The notes under the pieces were generated by a model, which was not told where the DNA came from, did no database searches, and saw only the letters and a program-made list of their open reading frames with translations. Made by a program: the position numbers and the translations under genes. Positions 1,792-15,906 of a DNA stretch of 39,238 bases are shown here, one piece after another. How positions within the stretch are numbered: the first letter of the stretch is position 1; each line of letters opens with the position of its first letter. The stretch covers positions 1 to 39,238 of the forward strand of contig JBHHXN010000029.1 in the NCBI GenBank assembly GCA_046757025.1, given 5' to 3'. This DNA comes from a bacterium (lineage in GTDB: Bacteria; Zhuqueibacterota; Zhuqueibacteria; Oceanimicrobiales; Oceanimicrobiaceae).

Positions 1792-4647
1792 ATGTTATCT
1801 TTCAATTCCAGAAAGTGTCTGTTACACGGAGCTTTCACTCATTTTATTCTACTACTTTTATTTCTGGGTCTGTTCGCCGCCAAAAATTTTGCGAATGCAC
1901 AGACAAATGGCACCATTACGGGCACGATCATCGATGATCGCACCGGGGAAGCCTTACCTGGTACCAACGTTTTTATTAAAGGCACCACTCTTGGTTCGGC
2001 AGCAGACCTGGAAGGTACGTTCACTGTTCGCAACGTACCGCCGGGCAATTACACGCTCATTGCGGCCTTCGTCGGTTATCATTCACAGGAAATATCCGTG
2101 AACGTGGTGGCCAACGAAGAAACCAGGGTTAATTTTTCATTGAAGATCAGCGCCCTGCAGATGGACGAAATCGTGGTGACGGGCACCGGTTACGAGCTCA
2201 AGAAAAAAGAGCTGACCACCGCCATCGCCACTATTAATTCGGATGAAATCGAAGCCTCGCCGGTAGAATCCATCGATCATCTGCTGCAAGGCCGGATTGC
2301 TGGTGGTTCGGTGAACATGAATTCTGGCTCACCCGGCACCGGCACCCGCATTCGCTTGCGCGGCATCACCAGCGCCAACGCCAGTCTGACTCCGGTCATC
2401 TATATCGACGGTGTGCGCGTGGACAACAATGACAACTTCCGTCTCGAACAGCAGACCGGCGGCCTGCAAACCAGCGTTTTATCAGACATCCTGATTGGCG
2501 ACATTGAGCGCATCGAAGTTACCAAAGGCGGGGCCGCATCCACTTTATACGGATCGGAAGCGGCCAGTGGGGTTATCCAGATTTTCACTAAAAAAGGCAA
2601 AGCCGGCAAAGCCAAAGCCACCTTCAAAGTCGAGCAAGGTGTCAACTCACCGGAAACCAAATTCGTCATCGAAGATTTCACCAAAGACGAAGTACTTAGC
2701 AGCGGCTACTACCAAAAGTACTCGGCTTCTCTGGATGGCGGAAGCGAAAAACTTACCTATCATCTCAGCGGTCATGTGCTGGACTCCGAGGGCGTACTGC
2801 CAAAAAACGATGAAACTCAGTACTCGTTTCGCGCCGGCGTGCGCACATTCCCGGCTGAAAAATTTCAGATCGACTTCTCTGCCGGACTGATCAGAGACGA
2901 TTATGAAAGAATGTTCAACAACAACGCCATCGCTGACCTGTATGGAACTATCGAAGGTTTTGATTCGCAATTTTTCGGACCCAACGTCACCGACGAAGAA
3001 AGAAAAACGCTGGTTCGGGAATATTCTCTCCCGAATTTAACTTATGCTGTCAATCGCTTCAATTTCGGCACCACCGCATCCTGGGATCCCATCAAGTATT
3101 TTTCTACGCGTTTGACCCTGGGAATGGATTACCGCAAAAACGAAGAGCGCCAGTTCATTCCCATCGAAGCCGAAATTGTCACCAGTACTCCGGGCGGCGG
3201 ACTCTTCCGCTCGGACCGGGAATTTTTAACCTTGACCATCGATTACGCCGGTACCATCAAGTACCCGATGGAAGGCCCCATTACATCGACCTTCACCGTG
3301 GGCGGCCAGGGCTTTCGAGAAGAAGATCGCGAAAGTCAGGTTTCAGCCACGAGTTTCGGCCTGCCCGGCACAGACGATTTTGATAACGCCGCCAACCTCG
3401 CTCCTCTGGAATCAAATCAGGAAATATTCAGCGGTGGTTTCTATTTCAATGAGCAGCTCGGTTTATGGAACAAATTGTTCCTAAATGCCGGCGTTCGTTT
3501 TGATGGCAACACGGCTTTCGGCGACGAGGTGGATCTGGAGGCCTTCCCAAAATTCGGCGCCGCTTACAATATTTCTGATGAAGCTTTCTGGCAGAAATTG
3601 CCCTGGAACGACATCCTGAATCAACTCAAATTCCGCTTCTCCTGGGGCAAGACCGGCAGTTTCCCGAATCCTTTTACACGGGACAAAACCTTCACGCAAG
3701 GCGCTTTTTTACAGGGCGTGGCGGTAAACTTCGGCAACCCGGGCGACGCCAGTTTAGCGCCGGAAAAAACCCGCACCATCGAAGTCGGTTTGGACGCCGC
3801 GCTGTTAAATGACCGCATTGGCGTCGAGTTCACGGTGTTCGATGAAAAAACCACCGACGCCTTATTCCGCGTGCCCAGCCAGCCCGCGACCGGCCTGGGT
3901 TTCCAACTGCGCAACGTCGGCACCATTGAAAACGACGGCATCGAACTGGCCATCAACGCAACGGTGATAGAATCCCGAAATTTCCGATTCTCTCTGCGCG
4001 GCTCCTATTCGACCCTGGACAACGAAGTGACCAGCCTGGGCGGTGCACAGCCCTTCAGCTCAGGCGGATTCGGTTTCCTCCCACAACGTGTGGAAGAAGG
4101 ACACCCTGTGGGTGTGTTCCGCACAAACAAACCGGTGCCCAATCCAGAGACTGGCGAATTGGACGGTGATTTCGATACGGTGTTTGAATTTTCTCCAACT
4201 GCTGACAAATACTATTCCATCTCAGCGAATTTCACCATCTTTCGCAATCTGGAATTGTCGGTTCTGGGTGACGGCCAGAGCGGCGCCAATATCTTGAACA
4301 CGGGATCGGTCATTCGTTTCTTCAACGGCGGAGAACCTCAGGCCAGCAAAGTCCCTGCGAATTATTCATTCTTTACAGCCTCACATGTGTTTGTAGAAGA
4401 CGCCAGTTATTTCAAAATTCGTGAAATTAACGCGTCCTACAGATTGCCGCAAAAATACTTTGGCACGCAGTTAACGTTTTTCGCCAACATTCGAAACGTC
4501 CTCACGTTTGCCGATAATGACGATCTCGATCCCGAATTGCATGGCATCACCAATTTTAACGCCACTTCCACCGACGTGGGCGGATTAAATTTCTTTACCC
4601 TTCCAGCACCCCGTCAATTCCGATTTGGCGTATTGGTTGGACTCTAA
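1792..4647 (+). CDS. SusC/RagA-family TonB-dependent outer membrane receptor
   Basis: Signal peptide, CarboxypepD_reg-like N-domain (GEALPGTNV), TonB box region (MDEIVVTG), plug (PVIYIDGV...IERIEVTKG.AASTLYG..AASGVIQIFTKKG), SusC-type motifs EDASYFKIREI and terminal PRQFRFG. Confidence 0.95.
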   Translation: MLSFNSRKCLLHGAFTHFILLLLFLGLFAAKNFANAQTNGTITGTIIDDRTGEALPGTNVFIKGTTLGSAADLEGTFTVRNVPPGNYTLIAAFVGYHSQEISVNVVANEETRVNFSLKISALQMDEIVVTGTGYELKKKELTTAIATINSDEIEASPVESIDHLLQGRIAGGSVNMNSGSPGTGTRIRLRGITSANASLTPVIYIDGVRVDNNDNFRLEQQTGGLQTSVLSDILIGDIERIEVTKGGAASTLYGSEAASGVIQIFTKKGKAGKAKATFKVEQGVNSPETKFVIEDFTKDEVLSSGYYQKYSASLDGGSEKLTYHLSGHVLDSEGVLPKNDETQYSFRAGVRTFPAEKFQIDFSAGLIRDDYERMFNNNAIADLYGTIEGFDSQFFGPNVTDEERKTLVREYSLPNLTYAVNRFNFGTTASWDPIKYFSTRLTLGMDYRKNEERQFIPIEAEIVTSTPGGGLFRSDREFLTLTIDYAGTIKYPMEGPITSTFTVGGQGFREEDRESQVSATSFGLPGTDDFDNAANLAPLESNQEIFSGGFYFNEQLGLWNKLFLNAGVRFDGNTAFGDEVDLEAFPKFGAAYNISDEAFWQKLPWNDILNQLKFRFSWGKTGSFPNPFTRDKTFTQGAFLQGVAVNFGNPGDASLAPEKTRTIEVGLDAALLNDRIGVEFTVFDEKTTDALFRVPSQPATGLGFQLRNVGTIENDGIELAINATVIESRNFRFSLRGSYSTLDNEVTSLGGAQPFSSGGFGFLPQRVEEGHPVGVFRTNKPVPNPETGELDGDFDTVFEFSPTADKYYSISANFTIFRNLELSVLGDGQSGANILNTGSVIRFFNGGEPQASKVPANYSFFTASHVFVEDASYFKIREINASYRLPQKYFGTQLTFFANIRNVLTFADNDDLDPELHGITNFNATSTDVGGLNFFTLPAPRQFRFGVLVGL

Positions 4648-4804: not shown

Positions 4805-6232
4805 ATGAATAAATTCAAAGCAAGCTGGGTGTGCACTTTCGTCATCGGGTGCACAATCCTGGCATTCTCAATGAACGGTTGTGATTTTTTGAATCCAACC
4901 GACGTAAGAAACCCGCAGACCACCGAAGAAAGTCTGGAAAGCGGCGGTACCGGCGCGTCCGGACCATTTTTAAATGGCGTAGCATTCCGTTATTCGGACG
5001 CCATTGAAGACATTTCCTACTTCACCGATGTGGTTTCCGACAACTACGACAACGTCGCGACCTTCATTTCGCCGGAGGCGGATTTTCCCAGAAACATGCG
5101 TCCCAGCGATCTCACTTTAAATGGCGGCGGCGGACCCTATTTTGAAGTTCAGGAGCTGCGTTCATTAGCTGATTTTACCATCACCGGTGTGATTCCAAAT
5201 GACGCGCAAGCCACGCCGGATGACCTGGCTGAAGCGCTGTTCTACCGCGGTATGTCCAATCTGCTGGCCGGCGAAAACTTCAGCGCCGTACCCACAGAAG
5301 AAAACGGCCCACTGGTTCCTTCCGAACAGTTGCTGCAATTGGCTGTAGCCGATTTTACCGAAGCGCTGAATACCAGTCAGCATTCCGGATTTGAAGCGCG
5401 CATTCACATCGTGAAAGCACGCGCTTACCGACTACTTGGCGACAAAGCCAACGCCGAGGTGGAAGCCAACGCCGCGTTGGGGGCGGCTTCCCCTGATTTT
5501 GTTTTCCCGGCGCAGTTTGACGCAGCAAACAACATCAATTCAGCTTACAACTTTGCCGTGAGCCGGGCTTTAAACGACGTCCAGCCCTTACCGCGTTTGG
5601 ATTTTCTCGATCCCAAATATCTGGATCGTGATTCGCCCATTGCCTCGGTAAAAATGGAAGAAGCGCATCTGATTTTAGCAGAAGCCGCGCTTTCGAACGG
5701 CGACAACGCCGGCGCCGTGGGGCATCTGGTCAACGCCATCAACCTGGCCAAAAGCCGCGGCACCTCCTCCTTTGTGGATGACGATCCCCGCGAGTTGCGG
5801 CCGCAAGCCGGCACTGTACAAGCGGGGCCGAGTGCGTCTGCAATCTCAGGATTGATTCTTCCTCGCAGCGGGCTGCTGGTGCAGGTGCCTACGATTTCTG
5901 GCAGCAGTCTCAACGCGGCAGCGGTCAGCGCCCTGACCGATCCGGCGGAGATTTTTTACACGCTCTACCTCGCACGGCAAGAGATCTTTTTCTACGAAGG
6001 CCGGCGCATGAGCGATCTCGGCATTAAACTACCTATCATGAACCGTGAAATCGAAACCAATACCAACATCAATGCCGGAGATCTGGGGACGGTGGCCGTG
6101 GTGCCCGACTACATCCCGGCCGAAGACGGTTTGGACGCTTTCACCTTTGATGGCAGCAACACCGTCATCAGCGTGGACATGAACCAGGTGCTGACGGACA
6201 ACCGAATTTCGCCCTTCAGCATGCCATTTTAG
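4805..6232 (+). CDS. SusD/RagB-like outer membrane lipoprotein
   Basis: Lipobox MNGC-DFL, AEALFYRG, EEAHLILAEA, RQEIFFYEGRRMSD (SusD ER.E..EG.R..D-like); directly follows susC. Confidence 0.85.
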   Translation: MNKFKASWVCTFVIGCTILAFSMNGCDFLNPTDVRNPQTTEESLESGGTGASGPFLNGVAFRYSDAIEDISYFTDVVSDNYDNVATFISPEADFPRNMRPSDLTLNGGGGPYFEVQELRSLADFTITGVIPNDAQATPDDLAEALFYRGMSNLLAGENFSAVPTEENGPLVPSEQLLQLAVADFTEALNTSQHSGFEARIHIVKARAYRLLGDKANAEVEANAALGAASPDFVFPAQFDAANNINSAYNFAVSRALNDVQPLPRLDFLDPKYLDRDSPIASVKMEEAHLILAEAALSNGDNAGAVGHLVNAINLAKSRGTSSFVDDDPRELRPQAGTVQAGPSASAISGLILPRSGLLVQVPTISGSSLNAAAVSALTDPAEIFYTLYLARQEIFFYEGRRMSDLGIKLPIMNREIETNTNINAGDLGTVAVVPDYIPAEDGLDAFTFDGSNTVISVDMNQVLTDNRISPFSMPF

Positions 6233-6338
6233 TTTATTCGAGTTTTTCTCGTTTAATGTATCCAGGTTGCCCGCATATTCTTTTGAATCTGTGGGCAATT
6301 TTATTTTTTTTCAGATTATTTTATTCGAGGAGATTAAC

Positions 6339-6728
6339 ATGCGCTCGTTACTAATCTTGTTATTAAGTTTCGTTTTCATCAATGCCTGCTCATCCACTTC
6401 GAAAAGCCGCAGCCAAAGCCAGGATAAATATGTGATCACCAACGAAGTCATTACAAATTCCAGCGCCACCAATGCGTTCGAAATCATTCAGCAACACCGT
6501 CCCCAGTGGTTTATTCGGATTCCTTCCCGGGGCACCAAATCCCTTTACACCGACGATGCCTCTCACCCGGTCGTCTATATGAACGACGTTCGGCGCGGCA
6601 AAATCGAGACGCTGCGCCAGATTTCGAGCCAGGCCGTCAAGGAGATTCGCTACCTGAAACCGCGGGAAGCCTCGTTGCGATTCGGTCTGGGGCACACCGG
6701 CGGCGCGATTCTGTTGAAAATGAAATAG
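6339..6728 (+). CDS. Small lipoprotein consisting of a stand-alone TonB-receptor plug-like domain
   Basis: Start moved to ATG 6339 (GAGGAG SD); lipobox INAC-SS; PVVYMNDVR...VKEIRYLK.REASLRFG.GHTGGAI parallels plug motifs. Confidence 0.8.
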   Translation: MRSLLILLLSFVFINACSSTSKSRSQSQDKYVITNEVITNSSATNAFEIIQQHRPQWFIRIPSRGTKSLYTDDASHPVVYMNDVRRGKIETLRQISSQAVKEIRYLKPREASLRFGLGHTGGAILLKMK

Positions 6729-6733
6729 GCGCC

Positions 6734-6760
6734 GGCGGCTTTCTGCACCGCCAATTTTTT
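6734..6760 (+). terminator. Weak intrinsic terminator after the susCD-plug operon
   Basis: GGCGG-N9-CCGCC followed by AATTTTTT. Confidence 0.35.
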
Positions 6761-6814
6761 GTCGATTGGAATAAGCTGAAATTTAGAATAGACCAGTAGA
6801 TTTTTGGTGCTTAG

Positions 6815-6973
6815 TATTCCATTTCAAAATGGATTGTCGGGTACCTATCTTCATGCTGAGTCCCAATTCAAATTCGGAGAACCATGATCTTCACCCTGAG
6901 CGGAGACGAAGGGTGAAGATCGGTAGCTGCTATTATCTCTTGTGAACCCTGCAACCATTTCTAAAATGGAGCA
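6815..6973. repeat. MITE-like element enclosing a REP-like hairpin
   Basis: Related palindromic ends CCATTTCAAAATGG (6819-6832) and CCATTTCTAAAATGG (6955-6969); internal perfect 12-bp stem GATCTTCACCCT / AGGGTGAAGATC (6886-6921). Confidence 0.5.
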
Positions 6974-7051
6974 CATAGCGCCGTGCATCGACCAGGTTTT
7001 GTCCATATATTGAAATTTCTAAACTCGAATATCGAAACAAACTTGAAAATC

Positions 7052-7268
7052 GAGGATTGAGGATGGCGGAATGCGGAATATGGGTTGAATGAGATTTAGG
7101 ATCTGACGAGAATATTCATTCAGCAGGAATCCTATTAATTAACAGCAGCTTACTTTAATAAAAATACTGAGTGACAACCGGATTCACAATCAATGATCTT
7201 AAACCGTGATTTTGGAATTAATCAGGTTAGTAGATAATTCCGATATCCGAAATCCTAAATCTGCAATC
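7052..7268. repeat. Inverted pair of degenerate heptamer tracts
   Basis: GAGGATT-GAGGATG-GCGGAAT-GCGGAAT (7052-7079) versus ATTCCGA-TATCCGA-AATCCTA-AATCTGC (7237-7264). Confidence 0.5.
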
Positions 7269-7402
7269 AGAATGTTTCGGATTTCCTTTTCACTTTACCT
7301 CGACGCTGGTCAACTAAAAAATATGGGTAAAGATGAGGAGGCTTATCGGCGCCATCTTTTCGCAGCATCGTCAGTGAACAGGGTTAGATTCCCATGCGGA
7401 GC

Positions 7403-9499
7403 TTACTTCGCGGCCAATTCCACGAACTTATAGTCATCTCCAAAAGTTTTGCCCTTTTTGTCGAACAACTCACGAATATGATCATCCATGCTAAAGTAGA
7501 GAATCTGCCAGCCCGACCTGGCCAGCGCAGCGACTTTATCGATGAGCAATTTGCGCCGATTCCAGTCTGAATATTGAAAAGCATCATCCAGGATCAAAAA
7601 TAGGCTGTCCTGTTTCATCAGTTTCGTACTAAAGCCGATGCGCAAAGCCAGCAGGATTTGCTCTTGTGCACCGGTACTGAGCTCCGATAAAGGGAAATGG
7701 TCGTAAGCATCTGAGACCACCAGGTTCTCGCCATCCAGCTCCAGACTGTTGTATCGTTTCGTGACTTGCATCAGCGGCTCCTGCACCTCTGTTGATTTCA
7801 GGCCGGCTAAGATTTTCGCGTCTTCGGTTTTTCGCAGCTCCTCGATGACCTCGCGCACTGCAATTTTTCCGATTATTTCAGCGGATTTTTGTTTGTAAGA
7901 TGCCAAAATATTCTGACGCTTCTGTTGTAAATTGTTTAACAGATCTTCCCACGACGTAGAAATACTGTCCCCGGTCTCATGACAAATGGACTGCTTCAGA
8001 TTGACCAGTTTTTGATTTTCATCTTCGAGCTGTTTTTCGGTCAAACGCAGTTTCGATTCCAGCTCATCTAATTTTTGTTTGCTGTATGTGATGTCCGGTT
8101 TTTGGACTTCATAATCAGAGGGGTCCACCCCAAGCGAAGCCAGGTAAAGCTCCCGTTCCCGAAGCTGACTTTCAATCTTTTGTAATTTATCCTCCATCTC
8201 AGCCAGCACCGTGTTCCAGGTTTGGGGCTCTGCATGTTCGCCGGTTATTTCAAAAAGCTGCTCCGATATGATCACCTTGGCTTTGTATAAATTTTGAAGC
8301 TCTTCTGACAACTGCTCCTTTAGCAGGCGGCTGTTGTTAAAGTCCTTTTCCATCTTCAGCTCATACTCGAGAATCATGGGCAGGCCGGTCAATTCCTGCT
8401 GAAAACGCTGCTGAAATTCTCGTTTGATGTTGGCAATTTCCTGATTTTCGAGTCTCTGTTCGGCCCAATTCCGATAGCTGCGGACATACAAAAAACCAAA
8501 TAAAATGACCCCAACCAAAGCTGCAATCGCATAAAGCGGCAGATTTAAAAACGCCAGCGCACCCGCGCCGGCTATCAGCAGAACCGCCAGGATTAAAAAA
8601 AACATGTTCGGTTTTTTAATGTCTTCCTTCAGCACATTCGCATAAATTTCATGCGCGCTTTTTAACCACTCATAGTGCTGACTTTTGGCTTCAGCGGTTT
8701 GCTGCTCTTCTTTTTTTTGTTTATATTCAGCCACCTTTTGTTTGTACATTTTCAGGCCGGTTTTAATTTCTTGAATTTTCTCAGCGGCAATGCGGTTCTT
8801 CGTTTCCGTTAGCTGCTTGATTTCCGAGTGGACGCTTTGAGCCAAATAGTTTTTGGCTTGCGTTTGTTTTTGGATTTCGACCTGAATTCGCTCTCTTTTC
8901 GTTTCAAGAGTTTTGCGATTCCCGCCAGAAAAAGACTTGTCGATTTGATTGAATAGCTGGTTGAGTTTTTTTAACTGATCGGCCAATTCGCTGCGCGTGC
9001 TGATTTCACCTCTGCGCGGTCCCGTGATGACATTGTTGACAAACTGCGATTCCAGAATGGTCTTGGAAATATTGGCTTCGATTTTATCCAGAATCTCCCG
9101 GCTGGAAAGATAGCGTTTTAAAATCGTTTTATCGGCGCCACCGGCCACGTTGGCGATTTCCAATTCAGCCCCTTTCACTACCAGCAGTTTTGAAAAATCC
9201 GCAGGCAGTCCCACTTCCGATTCCGCCCAGAAATCTTCAAGCTTTTTAGTGGAGGAGGGGGTAAACTCGAACACGCCGTCATCGCTTAAACCCTGAACCA
9301 AAACCTTCCCTCTTCCCTTTTGACTTCGCAGCGGCCAGAGACGGGCATTGCGAAAAAGTGCCCGAATTAAAAACTCCACCAGGTAGGTTTTACCCTGCTC
9401 ATTTCGCCCAAAGATTAAATTAAACTGTGCGGGTTGAAAGTTGAATTGCTTCAGCGGTCCCAGATTTTTAACATTGATTTCTTTGATCTTCAATGACAT
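7403..9499 (-). CDS. YhaN-like SMC/Rad50-type ATPase with a central transmembrane hairpin
   Basis: Walker A GRNEQGKT, long coiled coils, signature LSTGAQEQ, Walker B ILDDAF, H-loop SMDDH, two hydrophobic helices mid-protein. Confidence 0.9.
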   Translation of the reverse strand: MSLKIKEINVKNLGPLKQFNFQPAQFNLIFGRNEQGKTYLVEFLIRALFRNARLWPLRSQKGRGKVLVQGLSDDGVFEFTPSSTKKLEDFWAESEVGLPADFSKLLVVKGAELEIANVAGGADKTILKRYLSSREILDKIEANISKTILESQFVNNVITGPRRGEISTRSELADQLKKLNQLFNQIDKSFSGGNRKTLETKRERIQVEIQKQTQAKNYLAQSVHSEIKQLTETKNRIAAEKIQEIKTGLKMYKQKVAEYKQKKEEQQTAEAKSQHYEWLKSAHEIYANVLKEDIKKPNMFFLILAVLLIAGAGALAFLNLPLYAIAALVGVILFGFLYVRSYRNWAEQRLENQEIANIKREFQQRFQQELTGLPMILEYELKMEKDFNNSRLLKEQLSEELQNLYKAKVIISEQLFEITGEHAEPQTWNTVLAEMEDKLQKIESQLRERELYLASLGVDPSDYEVQKPDITYSKQKLDELESKLRLTEKQLEDENQKLVNLKQSICHETGDSISTSWEDLLNNLQQKRQNILASYKQKSAEIIGKIAVREVIEELRKTEDAKILAGLKSTEVQEPLMQVTKRYNSLELDGENLVVSDAYDHFPLSELSTGAQEQILLALRIGFSTKLMKQDSLFLILDDAFQYSDWNRRKLLIDKVAALARSGWQILYFSMDDHIRELFDKKGKTFGDDYKFVELAAK

Positions 9500-9501
9500 G
9501 A

Positions 9502-10566
9502 TTAATTTCCATAAATTACGTGCAAAGCTTCCAGCAAAATTTGCTCACGGGTGGGTTGTTCCGGGTTGTGTTTCAAGTCCAGCTTCTCTATCCAATCAGA
9601 CACCTGATTTGCTATTTCCGCCCGGTTGAAGTCATCAGCCACCGCCACAGCGGTCAAATCCGGCTCATGATTATTGTGGAAATTCAACTCTTTGCACCCT
9701 TCTTTGATAGACTTCATTAAAGCCCGTTTATTGGTTGTGTAACCCTGAACTTCCAATCGCAATTGCACTTTTGACAATTCAGCTTTGTTCAGCCTCCAGC
9801 TCGTAATCATCCTTTCGATGAGATTCTTAACATAAGCATCTTCATCTCGCAGAGGCAAAACGGTCATCGATTCATTAAAATAAATCACCTCGTTTCCGAC
9901 GATTTTTTCGGTAATCGCGCCGTTATCCACGTCCATGATCAAAAACCGCCGGCGGCCGGTCTCGGTGATATCCAGGCCGCAGGGCGAACCGAGGTAATGC
10001 AGGCGAGGCTTGTCCAGGGGTTTGTGAATATGCCCCAAAACCACTGTCGCAGGTTTGTAGTTTTCGATATCGGTTCGCGTCAGCGGCATGTAAACCCCCG
10101 GTTCCGCAGGATTGGGTTCCGCCAGGGACTCCGCCCAATCGCCATGCCCGATCAAAACCCAGTCGTTGGCTGGCAATTCATGTACGTTGGCCGCGATGAA
10201 TTCGCCCATGGTTTTGTCGGCTTGATACGGTAACAATAAAAATTTCAAGCCCGGAGAGTGAAATGTTTTTATAGCAGGTTCGGTTACGATATCCACGTTT
10301 GCCGCCACCAGGTCCTCGTTGCGCAGGCGCAGGTCGTGATTGCCCGGAATGATCAGAAACCGCACACCCTTGTACTCAGGCTTTTGACAAAAAGTATCAA
10401 ATTCCGCATAATTTTGTCTGGAAGCGTCAAAAAGATCGCCCGCGATCACGAGGATTTTGACCTGATTTTCAATGACTTGTTTTAATATATTTTCCAGAGC
10501 GTGGAACCGCTCAGGGTGCTCTTCGAAAGTCGTCAAATGCACATCGGCGGTGATAGCGATTTTCAA
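9502..10566 (-). CDS. YhaO/SbcD/Mre11-like metallophosphoesterase nuclease
   Basis: ADVH, GDLFD, GNHD, IGHG and GHIH motifs; TTG start with GGGGAG SD; 2 nt from the ATPase gene. Confidence 0.92.
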   Translation of the reverse strand: MKIAITADVHLTTFEEHPERFHALENILKQVIENQVKILVIAGDLFDASRQNYAEFDTFCQKPEYKGVRFLIIPGNHDLRLRNEDLVAANVDIVTEPAIKTFHSPGLKFLLLPYQADKTMGEFIAANVHELPANDWVLIGHGDWAESLAEPNPAEPGVYMPLTRTDIENYKPATVVLGHIHKPLDKPRLHYLGSPCGLDITETGRRRFLIMDVDNGAITEKIVGNEVIYFNESMTVLPLRDEDAYVKNLIERMITSWRLNKAELSKVQLRLEVQGYTTNKRALMKSIKEGCKELNFHNNHEPDLTAVAVADDFNRAEIANQVSDWIEKLDLKHNPEQPTREQILLEALHVIYGN

Positions 10567-11354: not shown

Positions 11355-11744
11355 ATGCCAATAGAAAAACAACTTTCTATTTTTGTGCAGAACAAAACCG
11401 GCATTTTAGCGGATCTTTGCAAAAACTTCTCGGCCGCCAACATCAACATCAAATCGTTTTCCATTGTGGACGATTTGGATTGGGGGATTTTACGGATTAT
11501 CGTGGACGACACCGATGCCAGTAAAAAAATCCTGAATGCCCGCGGTCTGACATACGGCGAAAGCCATGTGCTCTCCGTGGAGACGCGCAACCATCCGGGC
11601 GCACTGGCAGCATTGGCTGAAAAACTGGCCGAGAACGAAATCAACATAGAACAGGCGTTTGCCACTGCGGCCGGGAACAAAAGTTTAATCGTCATGTCCA
11701 CCACCGATGATCAAAAAGCCAACATTGTTCTTAGCCATGACTAA
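11355..11744 (+). CDS. Tandem ACT-domain protein
   Basis: QLSIFVQNKTGILADL...NINI and NHPGALAALAEKLAENEINI; AGGAGAGG SD. Confidence 0.9.
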   Translation: MPIEKQLSIFVQNKTGILADLCKNFSAANINIKSFSIVDDLDWGILRIIVDDTDASKKILNARGLTYGESHVLSVETRNHPGALAALAEKLAENEINIEQAFATAAGNKSLIVMSTTDDQKANIVLSHD

Positions 11745-11951
11745 AAATGGATTGAACAGCTCCACTGCTCTCCCTGGCGCCATCCAAGGCTTGACGAGGC
11801 TTTCCTGCTGTTACAACTGAATGACTCACGCATCCAAATAATGTACTGACTTCACAATGGTTTGCCATGTTATTTATCGATCGACGTTTATGGGACTCCG
11901 ATATCAATTTTATGATATGGCGACAATAATCTGTTCTTTCGGAGTTGTAAA

Positions 11952-12104
11952 ATGTCGCAAACGCTAAATTCAAAATTAATCCAGGAAATACAAAAACGAC
12001 TACAAAAGGGTGAGAACTTGTGGCGCATCCTGGATCAGTACAACCTCTCAGTGGATGACAAAATAGAGTTGCTGAGATTGTTCGACGACCAGAAATGGGA
12101 CTAA
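11952..12104 (+). CDS. Small 50-aa hypothetical helical protein (absent from the ORF track)
   Basis: GGAG SD 7 nt before ATG; MSQTLNSKLIQEIQKRLQKGENLWRILDQYNLSVDDKIELLRLFDDQKWD with amphipathic-helix pattern. Confidence 0.55.
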   Translation: MSQTLNSKLIQEIQKRLQKGENLWRILDQYNLSVDDKIELLRLFDDQKWD

Positions 12105-12368
12105 ATACAACGCTTGGTTTTTTGACGATCTCGGCTCTGGCAGGACCTGCTAATTCAGCCTCCCGCCGCTGCTTATGGCATAAAGCCGGGATTCAACAAT
12201 TTGGTAAATTCAAAATCCGAAATCCGCCATCTCCAGCCTGCTTTCGGAGTGTTGCGGATTTTTCTTTCTCTTTAGGCGTCGGCCTTCTTTTCGCAGCCGC
12301 GTCTGTGAAAAGACATAGCACCGCTTGGGTGATTTTCGGTGTTCAAGTGAATTAAACACCACATATTG

Positions 12369-14432
12369 TCAAAATGTTTTGTAATCGTTTTTGAGCAGGA
12401 CTTTTAGATTTGTACTATCGACCGGTCGGCTTATGTGAAAACCCTGAATTTCATCGCACTGCAGTGATCGCAAATAGGCGATCTGCTCTTCGTTTTCCAC
12501 GCCCTCTGCGAGCACCTTCAAATTGAGTCTGTGAGCCATAGCGATGATGGCTGAAACAATGGCCCAATCATCGTGCAGCTCATGCAAGCCATTTATAAAC
12601 GAACGATCAATTTTTAAAATATCAAACGGAAATCGTTTTAGATAATTTAATGAGGCGTAACCCGTACCAAAATCATCGATGGCAATTTGAATGCCCATTT
12701 CTTTCAATAGATTGAGAGTGGTGATGGTGTAATCCACATTCTGCATGGCGTTGCTTTCGGTGATTTCCAGCGCCAAATATTGTGCATCCAATTTTGACTC
12801 TTTTAAAATATCCTGTACGGTTTCTTTTAATTTCATAACTCGAAACTGTCTGGGTGACAGGTTCACCGAGACTCGCACCGGTTTGCAACCCGCCTTTTGC
12901 CAGGCTTTGTTTTGGTGACAGGCTGTGCGCAAAACCCACTCACCGATGGGCACGATAAGCCCGGATTCTTCCGCCAGGGAAATAAACCGATAAGGCGGCA
13001 AAAGTCCCAGATGCGGATGCAGCCAACGCACGAGAGCTTCAACCCCGACAATTCTTCCGCTGATCAAATCCACCTGCGGCTGATAATGCAGCACGAGTTG
13101 GTTTTGCTCGATGGCAATGCGCAGGTTGTTCTCAAGTTCCAGGCGTTCATAAGCCTGAGTATCCATGCAAACATTGTAAAACTGATAAAGATTGTTGCCT
13201 TCGCGTTTAGCGCGATACATGGCGATATCAGAATTTCTCACCAGGGTATCGATGTCTTTGCCGTCCGTTGGATACAGACTGATTCCGATACTGGCGGTCA
13301 CATTCAACTCATTGCCCTCCACATGAAATGGTTTTTCCAACTCTTTGATTATTTTTTGGGATACTTTTGCTGCGTCTTGCATCTGAGTAATCTGGTCTAA
13401 CACGATGGTGAACTCATCGCCGCCCAGTCGAGCCACCGAATCGCTTTCCCGAATGCAGAACTGCAGGCGGCTCGCCACCGACTTGAGCAGTTGATCGCCC
13501 ACATTATGCCCGAGAGAATCATTGATGTTCTTAAACCTATCCAAATCCAGAAACAACACCGCTACTTTGTGCTCATAGCGATTGGCACGCATGATAGCCT
13601 GATTGAGACGGTCGTAAAATAAATGCCGGTTTGGCAAACGAGTCAGTGCGTCATGGTAAGCTAAATAACGTTCTAATTTTCGCGATTTATCCAGCTCGGC
13701 CTGCATCTGCTTGCGTACGGTGATGTCGCGTAATGCAGCCAGATATGCCGGCTCGCCTTTCCATTCAATTTCAACCACCCGAATATCCGCCATAGCGGTT
13801 TCACCATTCCCACGGATGATCTCCAGCTCTACGGTTTCCCCCTCGAAAACAGGATAGCCAAACACTTCGCCAATCATCGACTCAGCCTTGCGGTTAAAAA
13901 GCTGTTCTGCCGCCGGATTCATAAATCGAATCTTGCCATATTTGTTTAAAATGATCACGCCGTCGGCATTTTTCTCGATCACGTTGCGGAAACGGTTTTC
14001 ACTCTCGCTCAATTGTTGTACTTTCGTTTGCAGCTCTTTCACTAATTTGTTTTGTGCCACCGAATGCAGCAGAAAACTCGACAACAATTTGTGATTCATC
14101 TGCCCTTTCACAAAATAATCCTGGGCGCCTTCCTGAACGACGGCTCGGGCAAAATCCTGGTCCTCCGCGCTGACCAAAACGATGATAGGAAGGCGGGCCG
14201 CTTGTTTCTGCAATTTTCTGAAGCTCACAATGCCCTCCACATCGCTCACAGACAAATCCAACAATATCAATTCGATATCGTTATCTTGTAATCGCTGTAA
14301 AGCGTCGCTCAAACGCTCGCTGTGAAGGAGTTCAAACCGGGACGGCTGGCCATCCAGCAAAATCTTCTGAACTGTTTTCACAGCTCGCCGATCATCTGCT
14401 ATGAGTAATATTTTAATCAAGTGATCGCTCAT
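12369..14432 (-). CDS. REC-PAS-GGDEF-EAL diguanylate cyclase/phosphodiesterase
   Basis: REC (ILLDL...AQDYFVKG), PAS (NPAAEQLF...RDIT), HDALTRLPNR, I-site RESD plus GGDEF, EALVRW, DDFGTGY. Confidence 0.96.
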   Translation of the reverse strand: MSDHLIKILLIADDRRAVKTVQKILLDGQPSRFELLHSERLSDALQRLQDNDIELILLDLSVSDVEGIVSFRKLQKQAARLPIIVLVSAEDQDFARAVVQEGAQDYFVKGQMNHKLLSSFLLHSVAQNKLVKELQTKVQQLSESENRFRNVIEKNADGVIILNKYGKIRFMNPAAEQLFNRKAESMIGEVFGYPVFEGETVELEIIRGNGETAMADIRVVEIEWKGEPAYLAALRDITVRKQMQAELDKSRKLERYLAYHDALTRLPNRHLFYDRLNQAIMRANRYEHKVAVLFLDLDRFKNINDSLGHNVGDQLLKSVASRLQFCIRESDSVARLGGDEFTIVLDQITQMQDAAKVSQKIIKELEKPFHVEGNELNVTASIGISLYPTDGKDIDTLVRNSDIAMYRAKREGNNLYQFYNVCMDTQAYERLELENNLRIAIEQNQLVLHYQPQVDLISGRIVGVEALVRWLHPHLGLLPPYRFISLAEESGLIVPIGEWVLRTACHQNKAWQKAGCKPVRVSVNLSPRQFRVMKLKETVQDILKESKLDAQYLALEITESNAMQNVDYTITTLNLLKEMGIQIAIDDFGTGYASLNYLKRFPFDILKIDRSFINGLHELHDDWAIVSAIIAMAHRLNLKVLAEGVENEEQIAYLRSLQCDEIQGFHISRPVDSTNLKVLLKNDYKTF

Positions 14433-14460
14433 TTAAAAAGGAAAATCAGTCAACAAATCC

Positions 14461-14841
14461 TTACAGGACCGTTGCCCCTTCCAGCGCACCCAGGGCCACA
14501 GATGCGAGCTGACTGTTTGGGATGGAATTCCGGAGGATTTCAAAATGCAAACCTTCCTCAGCAAGATGCTTGATATTCATCCAGGATTCTTTTTGAAAAG
14601 ATGTGATTAAATACAATGGCACATCCGGCTGCGATTCGTGCAATTGTTTCAACGAATCCACTTCGATATTTACAGAACCACTGAGATTGACAAAAATCAA
14701 ATCAAAAGGGGATTGCTGATTCATTTTTATGGCTGCGTCGCTGGAGCCGGCAATTGCCACAGTGTATGGCGTGTTTTTTACCACCGAATGGTAAAACTGA
14801 TCATCTGATTCATCATCGATTACCAATATTTTCTTATTCAT
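14461..14841 (-). CDS. Stand-alone receiver-fold protein, probable pseudo-receiver
   Basis: KILVIDD and FDLIFVNL (Asn at the phosphoacceptor Asp position); ILRNSI in place of the conserved KP motif. Confidence 0.8.
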   Translation of the reverse strand: MNKKILVIDDESDDQFYHSVVKNTPYTVAIAGSSDAAIKMNQQSPFDLIFVNLSGSVNIEVDSLKQLHESQPDVPLYLITSFQKESWMNIKHLAEEGLHFEILRNSIPNSQLASVALGALEGATVL

Positions 14842-14862
14842 ACTGCCAACCTTGGTTTTACC

Positions 14863-15120
14863 TTAATCCAATAGTTTTATTATTTTATCACGATCCTTGA
14901 AAGTACCGATTATTTTTCGAACCGGCTCAGGTTTCATTTTTAGCAATGTTGGGGTTGCAAAAATTTTATCCCTTATGGCGATTTGCGGTGATTGCAACAA
15001 ATCGATTATTTCAAGATCGTATTTTTTTTGGTACTTTTCGGCCAGGATGTTTTCGATTTGATCAATGGCCATTCTCGATTTTGGATTATTCCCCAATATA
15101 TAAAGCCTGTATTTCGGCAT
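14863..15120 (-). CDS. kaiB: KaiB-family protein
   Basis: RLYILGNNPKS, YDLEIIDL...PQIA..DKIFATPTL.K..PEPVRKIIG align with KaiB. Confidence 0.92.
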   Translation of the reverse strand: MPKYRLYILGNNPKSRMAIDQIENILAEKYQKKYDLEIIDLLQSPQIAIRDKIFATPTLLKMKPEPVRKIIGTFKDRDKIIKLLD

Positions 15121-15463
15121 GTTTTTCCTTTTATTTTTTCAAACCCAATCAACTTCAAGCCGGTAAACTTGAGCCACACATCTTTTTTCGATACCAGTTA
15201 CTTTAAAATACATCGACACATTTTTGTATGATGTTTATTCCTTTTTTAAGCGAAATAACGCTTTTCATCGAAATCGAATTTAGAAGAAGGGCCTTCGGTG
15301 GATACGGCTATCGATTTGTCACGATTTTCAGAACGATACATCGGAAAAGCTGCCATGCCGGAACATCGACCACGGTGCCTTGATACAGTGGGAAAGAAAG
15401 GGGAGAATTCCCTGATAAAAATTCAATATTTTAATAATGGCGCGAACACCATTTACACGGCTG

Positions 15464-15751
15464 TCAAAAAGCGGCGTCGATCCGCTTCGCCAGCCCGAAA
15501 TCAAAAGTACTGAGCCCCCCTAAATCGTGAGTGGTGAGATCAATGGTGACCACATTGTACACGTTCGACCATTCCGGGTGATGATTCATGGCCTCTGCCA
15601 GCAGCGCCACCCGGGTCATAAAACCGAACGCTTCCACAAACGATTCAAATTGAAATCGTTTGTGCAATTTGTTGTTTTCAACAGTCCAGCCCCCCAATTT
15701 TGAAATATTTTCAGCGATTTCTTTTGGGTTCAATTTTCTTCTCTCACTCAT
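15464..15751 (-). CDS. phhB: Pterin-4-alpha-carbinolamine dehydratase
   Basis: F..F.EAFGFMTRVALLAE.MNHHPEWSNVYN.V.I.LTTHD.GGLS..D..LA signature. Confidence 0.95.
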   Translation of the reverse strand: MSERRKLNPKEIAENISKLGGWTVENNKLHKRFQFESFVEAFGFMTRVALLAEAMNHHPEWSNVYNVVTIDLTTHDLGGLSTFDFGLAKRIDAAF

Positions 15752-15811: not shown

Positions 15812-15832
15812 GAAAATGGATTTAGATAAAGG

Positions 15833-15906
15833 TAGCGGTGCAGGGACTCGAACCCCGGACACGTGGATTATGATTCCACTGCTCTAGCCGACTGAGCTAC
15901 ACCGCC
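15833..15906 (-). tRNA. tRNA-Met(CAT), probably elongator
   Basis: GGCGGTGTAGCTCAGTCGGCTAGAGCA-GTGGA-ATCATAA-TCCAC-GTGTCCGGGGTTCGAGTCCCTGCACCGCTA cloverleaf; G1-U72 pair; followed by CCT rather than CCA. Confidence 0.95.

Follow-up and report, generated by a model that had tools for sequence, protein, structure and literature searches.

A stretch of 39,238 nucleotides from a bacterium of the family Oceanimicrobiaceae (phylum Zhuqueibacterota; assembly GCA_046757025.1, contig JBHHXN010000029.1, positions 1 to 39,238; hereafter the window) carries on its minus strand a kaiB gene, a gene for a single-domain receiver and a gene for a REC-PAS-GGDEF-EAL enzyme. We find that this trio is a rare kinase-less, phosphorylation-dead variant of a KaiC-independent KaiB module, placed in front of an enzyme of cyclic di-GMP (c-di-GMP) turnover. 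The standard module consists of a kinase, a receiver of a family that we call REC*, KaiB, and then an output protein with one characteristic PAS type, and it is widespread. It is related to Kai operons yet usually occurs without KaiC, and the window feature is not a Kai clock.

The three genes of the window

An earlier, sequence-only reading of this DNA had described three tightly spaced genes, and this held. The kaiB gene (15120-14863, 85 amino acids), the receiver gene (14841-14461, 126 amino acids) and the enzyme gene (14432-12369, 687 amino acids) are separated by 21 and 28 nt, and all three are open reading frames (ORFs). Single contigs in three public runs span all three genes; the runs belong to one study, labelled hydrothermal vent metagenome, from which this DNA may itself derive. 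Of 18 variant places listed, none falls in kaiB or the receiver gene and eight fall in the enzyme (five silent, three not). No RNA data set was present among the listed public runs that carry this DNA.

The KaiB protein scores 78.1 bits with Pfam KaiB (PF07689; cut-off 27) and is the only KaiB found in the genome. It misses the cut-offs of the clock KaiB equivalogs TIGR02654 (82 vs 145.3) and NF006798 (83.9 vs 110). The chain stops at the position equivalent to cyanobacterial KaiB Asp91 and has no acidic tail; L6, Y7, P45, T56-P57-T58 (ATPT region) and P64, P66 and G72 (cis-Pro region) are retained. The receiver gives 24.7 bits with Pfam, below the cut-off of 30.2. As first read, it lacks both the phosphoacceptor Asp (D52N, in a DLIFVN motif) and the Lys-Pro pair (K105N and P106S, leaving Asn105-Ser106); M55, P56 and G60 are also changed.

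In the enzyme, Pfam places REC at residues 10-117, PAS from 146, GGDEF at 258-414 and EAL at 435-670. Its catalytic motifs are whole, in agreement with the earlier reading: the RxxD I-site (R328-D331) lies five residues ahead of GGDEF (337-341), EAL is found at 465, and DDFGTGYAS and EGVE are retained. The protein is thus predicted from its motifs to make and break c-di-GMP. Its own receiver is partly degenerate (E12A in the acidic pocket, T/S87V), with Asp59 and Lys109 retained. We considered this degeneration as a mark of KaiB control and rejected the idea; a KaiB-free orthologue (L048) also lacks the Asp.

A profile search of the window contig matched these three genes alone, with no kinase or KaiC, and Pfam scans of 21 window ORFs likewise gave no kinase or KaiC. 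The absence of kaiC and of a histidine kinase from the window, noted before, was thereby borne out.

The REC* family and its module

REC* is the name given here to KaiB-linked single-domain receivers with a PVYIVTAF...EG.xFE signature (beta4-alpha4-beta5). A full homologue search without a profile gave 246 matches at E ≤ 0.001, of which 149 non-self matches were listed; 94 of these passed a profile of the signature, which was built partly from them. A KaiB domain is fused to REC* in 22 of the 94 proteins, at the C-terminus in 21 and at the N-terminus in one, with linkers of varying length. The phosphoacceptor Asp is retained in 93 of the 94 and the Lys in 88, and by sequence the family should be phosphorylatable. 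Against a signature profile of 87 locus sequences that did not include the window row, the window receiver scored 32.8 bits (E 4.7e-8); the next protein of its genome scored 14.5. Its best structural match was an Atlas REC+KaiB cluster (TM 0.76), and clusters of this kind made up seven of the 30 feature matches for one fusion. The other 166 genomes of the phylum yielded no orthologue of the window receiver (best E 4.6e-9). Word-based searches found eight other KaiB proteins and no copy of the window receiver, and a genome scan with the window KaiB alone as query gave no relative.

Gene neighbourhoods were sampled as the best 80 of 558 listed loci from species genomes and the best 80 of 544 from metagenomes, in order of similarity to a single standard member; a few genomes contribute more than one locus. 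kaiB is present in 113 of the 160 REC* loci (genome 56/80, metagenome 57/80) and is fused or adjacent to REC* in 47 genome and 46 metagenome loci; as a background rate, 6 of 167 genomes of the window's phylum have any KaiB. The pairing of KaiB with a receiver proposed from the window is therefore real as a conserved, often fused unit. In 59 of the 80 genome loci REC* is directly preceded by a kinase gene. Counted over the whole locus, a kinase is present in 96 of 113 kaiB loci, and the remaining 17 are mostly short contigs.

The gene after kaiB encodes the window-type PAS in 30 of 80 genome loci at E ≤ 1e-4 (nine GGDEF-EAL, five GGDEF, eight kinase, eight other). When at least 60 bits directly after kaiB were required, 49 of the 113 loci remained (18 kinase, 11 GGDEF, four GGDEF-EAL, 16 other or cut); outputs of the HD-GYP and HisKA_2 kinds are found among module loci too. 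Strong matches to the PAS type were found in 55/113 loci with kaiB vs 3/47 without, and, for loci of at least 8 kb, in 41/68 vs 2/23. The carriers named among the matches belong to the Pseudomonadota, Thermodesulfobacteriota, Planctomycetota, Chloroflexota, Acidobacteriota, Bacillota, Bacteroidota, Ignavibacteriota, Spirochaetota, Armatimonadota, Lentisphaerota, Cloacimonadota, Omnitrophota and WOR-3.

The window set shares with the module the REC* signature, an adjoining kaiB and an output gene with the characteristic PAS. It lacks the upstream histidine kinase (none on the contig) and the phosphoacceptor Asp (D52N, with K105N). The survey of the three-gene order that had been suggested for this trio showed that kaiB-REC*-PAS protein does recur, in four of 160 loci (L074, L109, L118 and L228, with kinase outputs), but that the usual loci also have a kinase. 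According to the sequence-only reading, orthologous operons that always carry kaiC plus a kinase with an Asp-intact receiver would point to this copy being a decaying remnant. Half of that picture was found, because REC* orthologues keep the Asp and follow a kinase; the other half was not, since they mostly carry no kaiC.

Several loci depart from the standard arrangement. Four Dehalococcoidia loci (L093, L097, L104 and L112) have REC* alone, without kinase or kaiB, between genes that we take from their N-termini to be dnaJ-like and PilT-type ATPase-like. L199 has four closely spaced REC* genes (5551-8149) and no kaiB. In L092:6540-12354, L105:2322-8249 and L094:6474-11719 (L094 and L191 seem to be one locus) a stressosome-type set, made up of protoglobin-STAS, STAS, RsbT-like ATPase, SpoIIE phosphatase and kinase genes, lies directly upstream of a REC*-kaiB-PAS output; the gene labels have a Pfam basis for L092 only. 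We found no literature linking KaiB with the stressosome.

KaiC and KaiA

A genome search for kaiC had also been proposed, and none was found in the window genome, which is 94.77% complete in 374 contigs. TIGR02655, for double-domain KaiC, had no match and our own KaiC profile reached 26 bits at best; PF06745 had five matches, the two best being RadA and DnaB. No KaiA was detected with PF07688, for which the control was positive, and a profile of the KaiA-like tail described below, which has no positive control, gave no match. The five other KaiB genes of the phylum all adjoin kaiC, and none of those five loci has REC*.

Among the 113 kaiB loci, one has a double-domain kaiC and four have any KaiC-like match. 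The genomes surveyed for kaiC correspond to 50 of the 56 genome loci with kaiB; the six others are four that repeat a genome, and L100 and L126. No TIGR02655 match (E ≤ 1e-10) was present in 35 of these 50 genomes, whose completeness is not stated. Five well-assembled module genomes gave only weak partial PF06745 matches (best E 7e-11); true single-domain KaiC-like proteins score 95-110 bits with PF06745, far above these. Among these five are two records titled chromosome and two isolates. L096 and L107, which are chromosome records of nearly whole-genome extent, and the cultured isolates L113 (Thiospirillum jenense) and L134 have the module and no kaiC match.

Single-domain KaiC-like ATPases directly follow REC* or REC*-kaiB in L136:7381-8250, L140:10390-11163 and L142:10390-11163 (PF06745 scores of 95 bits in L136 and 110 bits in L140). 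In L153:2151-6690, L078:3596-6050 and L172:232-2795 the order is REC*-kaiB, a gene for a PAS domain with a helical tail, and a second kaiB, followed by kaiC in L153 and by a kaiC fragment at the contig end in L078. The best structural match of the helical tail was the KaiA C-terminal domain (Z 7.4, root-mean-square deviation (rmsd) 4.5 over 96 aligned residues, model pLDDT 62), which is below the trust level for helical bundles. Searches of Pfam, NCBIfam and PDB sequences gave no match to the tail, and Foldseek gave none at E ≤ 0.001. As modelled, the protein is possibly a PAS-type variant of KaiA3.

Surroundings and origin of the window copy

The trio fills a slot after an ACT gene (window 11744-15464) that is a variable c-di-GMP cassette in the family. 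Its edges, which lie outside the module and are given for context, are an ACT-pair gene (11355..11744, plus strand) and a pterin-4a-carbinolamine dehydratase gene (15464..15751, minus strand), both identified with Pfam. Of 13 further loci of the family, eight have other GGDEF/EAL genes at this position, accompanied by ordinary kinases and receivers; in these eight (L233, L234, L236-L238 and L240-L242) and in L047, beyond the 13, the kinase and receiver partners differ and kaiB is absent. In the same-family genome G051, an enzyme 58% identical to that of the window comes after Rad50-like, Mre11-like and ACT genes, and the 857 bp from it to the contig end contain neither kaiB nor REC*. The GC3 of the window kaiB, 0.38, lies at the 2.7th percentile of equal-length windows in its genome, and that of the receiver gene at the 12.5th percentile. 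On the simplest reading, the enzyme was resident and its PAS was already of the matching type when kaiB and REC* arrived in front of it; alternatively, they may have been lost in G051. In a KaiB tree (92 rows, 96 columns; rows with X or shorter than 70 amino acids dropped) the window protein fell in no supported group, so no donor is named.

Next to the ACT gene, and conserved across the family in this position, is a pair encoding a metallophosphoesterase (Mre11/SbcD-like) and a coiled-coil ATPase (Rad50/SbcC-like; 7403-10566), the ATPase being labelled by motifs, with no Pfam match. A TonB-dependent receptor gene (1792-4647) lies among ORFs at 216-677, 4805-6232 and 6267-6728 that have no Pfam match at E ≤ 1e-5. 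On the other side, a tRNA-Met (CAT) gene (15831-15906, minus strand) is located 80 bp upstream of the dehydratase gene; apart from this tRNA, an Rfam scan of the window gave no riboswitch or other match, and promoter-like and terminator-like sites in the window were no more frequent than expected by chance. The region 16310-39053, with genes for a LacI regulator, a TonB-dependent receptor, an unannotated 1305-residue protein, PorV-like and CBM20/FlgD proteins, a sodium:solute symporter and an alpha-amylase, is a probable starch-use locus judged by its gene content.

Discussion

In the module, KaiB is likely a signalling adaptor rather than a clock part. More specifically, we propose that the window trio is a kinase-less form of a KaiC-independent module in which KaiB acts as adaptor from the state of the receiver to the output PAS, a tentative reading that has a little less chance of being right than wrong. 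The following scheme builds on what was observed: a gene set conserved across many phyla, fusions of REC* with KaiB in either order, a recurring PAS type behind kaiB, exchangeable outputs and the missing kaiC match. In the standard module the kinase would phosphorylate REC*, which would bind or release KaiB, predicted to be in its thioredoxin-like fold. We suggest this step because the fusions occur in both orders and with varying linkers. KaiB would then bind the PAS domain and so shift the activity of the attached GGDEF/EAL, kinase or HD-GYP part, a step suggested by the gene order and by KidA, whose PAS domains bind fold-switched KaiB. In the window copy, which has neither kinase nor Asp, REC* would be locked in one state, so that the c-di-GMP output would be set by the levels of KaiB and REC* or by the fold equilibrium of KaiB, not by phosphorylation. 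Two parts of the first reading of the trio fare differently in this light: a clock-independent use of KaiB is favoured by the lack of kaiC here and of a match in 35 of 50 module genomes, but a switch that is phosphorylation-independent by design does not fit a family in which 93 of 94 receivers keep the Asp and a kinase precedes REC* in 59 of 80 loci.

In an AlphaFold2 model of one fusion from the family, which is not the window protein, KaiB takes the thioredoxin-like fold, with an rmsd of 1.1 to 4kun; the model represents one state and is silent on switching, and, according to the available text of PMC11934219, such fold predictions can reflect training data. With a pTM of 0.63 the model is uninformative on the domain interface. 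Mutual information between the proteins, calculated from 87 paired rows, gave a top z of 6.0, within the range of shuffled pairings (5.2-6.1), and thus no signal. A mirror-tree correlation (r = 0.62) was dropped, being expected from the shared ancestry of neighbouring genes.

Several points weigh against the proposal. Binding is a prediction for either pair, KaiB-REC* and KaiB-PAS, and the locus counts describe only the core of the REC* family (best 80 of 558 and 80 of 544). TIGR02655 matches are present in 15 of the 50 module genomes, four of them above the curated cut-off (completeness of these genomes not stated), and in three loci (L153, L078 and L172) the module is tied to a kaiB-kaiC operon or to what is likely the beginning of one. 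The window receiver matches 28 of 56 conserved columns, the 87 other family rows at least 68%, a difference that decay would produce as well. Finally, close orthologues of the enzyme (52-59% identical) exist in KaiB-free relatives, one at the same locus, and the enzyme therefore does not need KaiB.

The window receiver is the most diverged REC* copy seen (88 rows) and has no kinase; the window copy is for this reason either a constitutive (rewired) form or a decaying one. That the standard module is functional elsewhere and the window copy a decaying remnant, its kinase lost, its receiver drifting and its enzyme working alone as in the relatives, we regard as unlikely, if well short of implausible. 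The changes at D52, K105, P106, M55, P56 and G60, a conservation that is the lowest of the 88 rows, and the absence of a kinase from the contig would all be expected of a remnant, as would the G051 orthologue at the same site without kaiB or REC* and the lack of kaiB in all 20 genomes of the same family. However, the kaiB and receiver frames are both whole and KaiB keeps the conserved residues of its ATPT and cis-Pro regions together with L6, Y7 and P45. The losses are also concentrated on the phosphorylation machinery (7/18 positions kept vs 8/8 in beta1 and 8/12 in the family signature, all small numbers), and a second dead receiver fused to KaiB is found at L148:9329-9955, between a kinase and an intact REC*.

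The action of KaiB might instead be confined to the kinase-receiver pair, where it would serve REC* as a sink, scaffold or phosphatase helper, the PAS enzyme being co-transcribed and untouched. The fusions join KaiB to REC*, and none of the 160 loci has an ORF that combines KaiB with the PAS type; 64 of the 113 kaiB loci have no strong PAS match directly after kaiB, although many loci end early, and the enzyme is found without KaiB. We nevertheless judge this improbable, as L099, L101, L102, L108, L086 and L087 keep kaiB by the PAS gene and apart from REC*, the PAS type is strongly enriched in kaiB loci, and in the window the kinase is gone with kaiB still in front of the enzyme. It is very improbable that a KaiC timer, encoded at another place or absent from the assembly, has the trio as its output arm. 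In favour of it, the genome is in 374 contigs at 94.77% completeness, the other KaiB genes of the phylum adjoin kaiC, and a kinase or GGDEF/EAL gene behind kaiC-kaiB is an arrangement already published (PMC3164672). Against it, TIGR02655, PF07688 and our KaiC profile found nothing, the best two PF06745 matches are RadA and DnaB, and the module occurs with no kaiC match in two chromosome records (L096, L107) and two isolates (L113, L134).

Precedents exist for parts of the proposed adaptor role. KidA of Synechococcus elongatus, a PAS x4-GGDEF-EAL protein, binds fold-switched KaiB through its PAS domains and so sets a direct precedent for contact between KaiB and the PAS part of a c-di-GMP enzyme; it works within the KaiABC clock, and what is reported is an effect on period, not control of the enzyme by KaiB (PMC9478674). 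The window enzyme differs in having one PAS domain, an N-terminal receiver and an operon with kaiB and no KaiC. Non-cyanobacterial kaiC-kaiB operons with a kinase or GGDEF/EAL gene likewise place a signalling enzyme after kaiB (PMC3164672; Rhodobacter KaiBC, PMC10076222), and in one such operon of the window's own phylum (L015) the protein after kaiB has the window PAS type (98 bits). However, kaiC, the defining gene of these operons, was not found in the window genome, and the five such loci of the phylum lack REC*.

The pseudo-receiver of CikA shares with the window the pairing of an Asp-less receiver fold with KaiB, but it is a domain within a kinase, and its encounter with KaiB takes place on KaiC (PMC6378743). 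The window receiver stands alone, comes from an Asp-intact family and has Spo0F/PhoP/TrrA-type receivers as its closest solved relatives. The link to CikA is best taken as an analogy: its pseudo-receiver is not among the 27 PDB matches of the window receiver (E ≤ 10), nor among the 60 listed of 270 for the family profile. In KaiA3-KaiB3-KaiC3, a receiver-type input is encoded next to kaiB, as in the module; KaiA3 is a receiver fused to a KaiA domain and drives KaiC3 (PMC11372060). Three module loci (L153, L078 and L172) have a PAS protein with a helical, possibly KaiA-like tail by the second kaiB, whereas the window genome has no match to KaiA, the helical tail or KaiC.

A survey states that KaiB occurs only alongside full-length KaiC (PMC5520375); the available text of PMC5847659 does not mention KaiB and that of PMC10076222 has nothing on KaiB without KaiC. 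We found no description of a KaiC-less receiver-KaiB-PAS module in full-text literature, a coverage that leaves out most subscription journals and in which a mention in a supplement or domain census could be missed, and the module is apparently undescribed before. A Legionella kai-operon paper reportedly lists a receiver gene by kaiB-kaiC, a point on which nothing here is built.

It is possible, though on balance doubtful, that KaiB is quite generally a clock-free adaptor in two-component signalling, with the receiver gating KaiB, KaiB gating the PAS domain, and an interchangeable effector (GGDEF/EAL, HD-GYP, kinase or a KaiA-like KaiC activator). The slow fold switch could then serve as a delay or temperature filter, and in the window copy, its phosphate input cut, KaiB alone would set c-di-GMP turnover. 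If true, this clock-free role would also suggest how KaiC came to be joined by KaiB and by KaiA3-type inputs. Because the window copy may be decaying, it matters less than the REC*-KaiB-PAS family. A conserved KaiC-less KaiB module in at least 12 phyla gives a model fold-switching protein a likely job outside timekeeping, and it makes a long-standing question, the role of KaiB in non-photosynthetic bacteria and its origin, testable with small soluble proteins.

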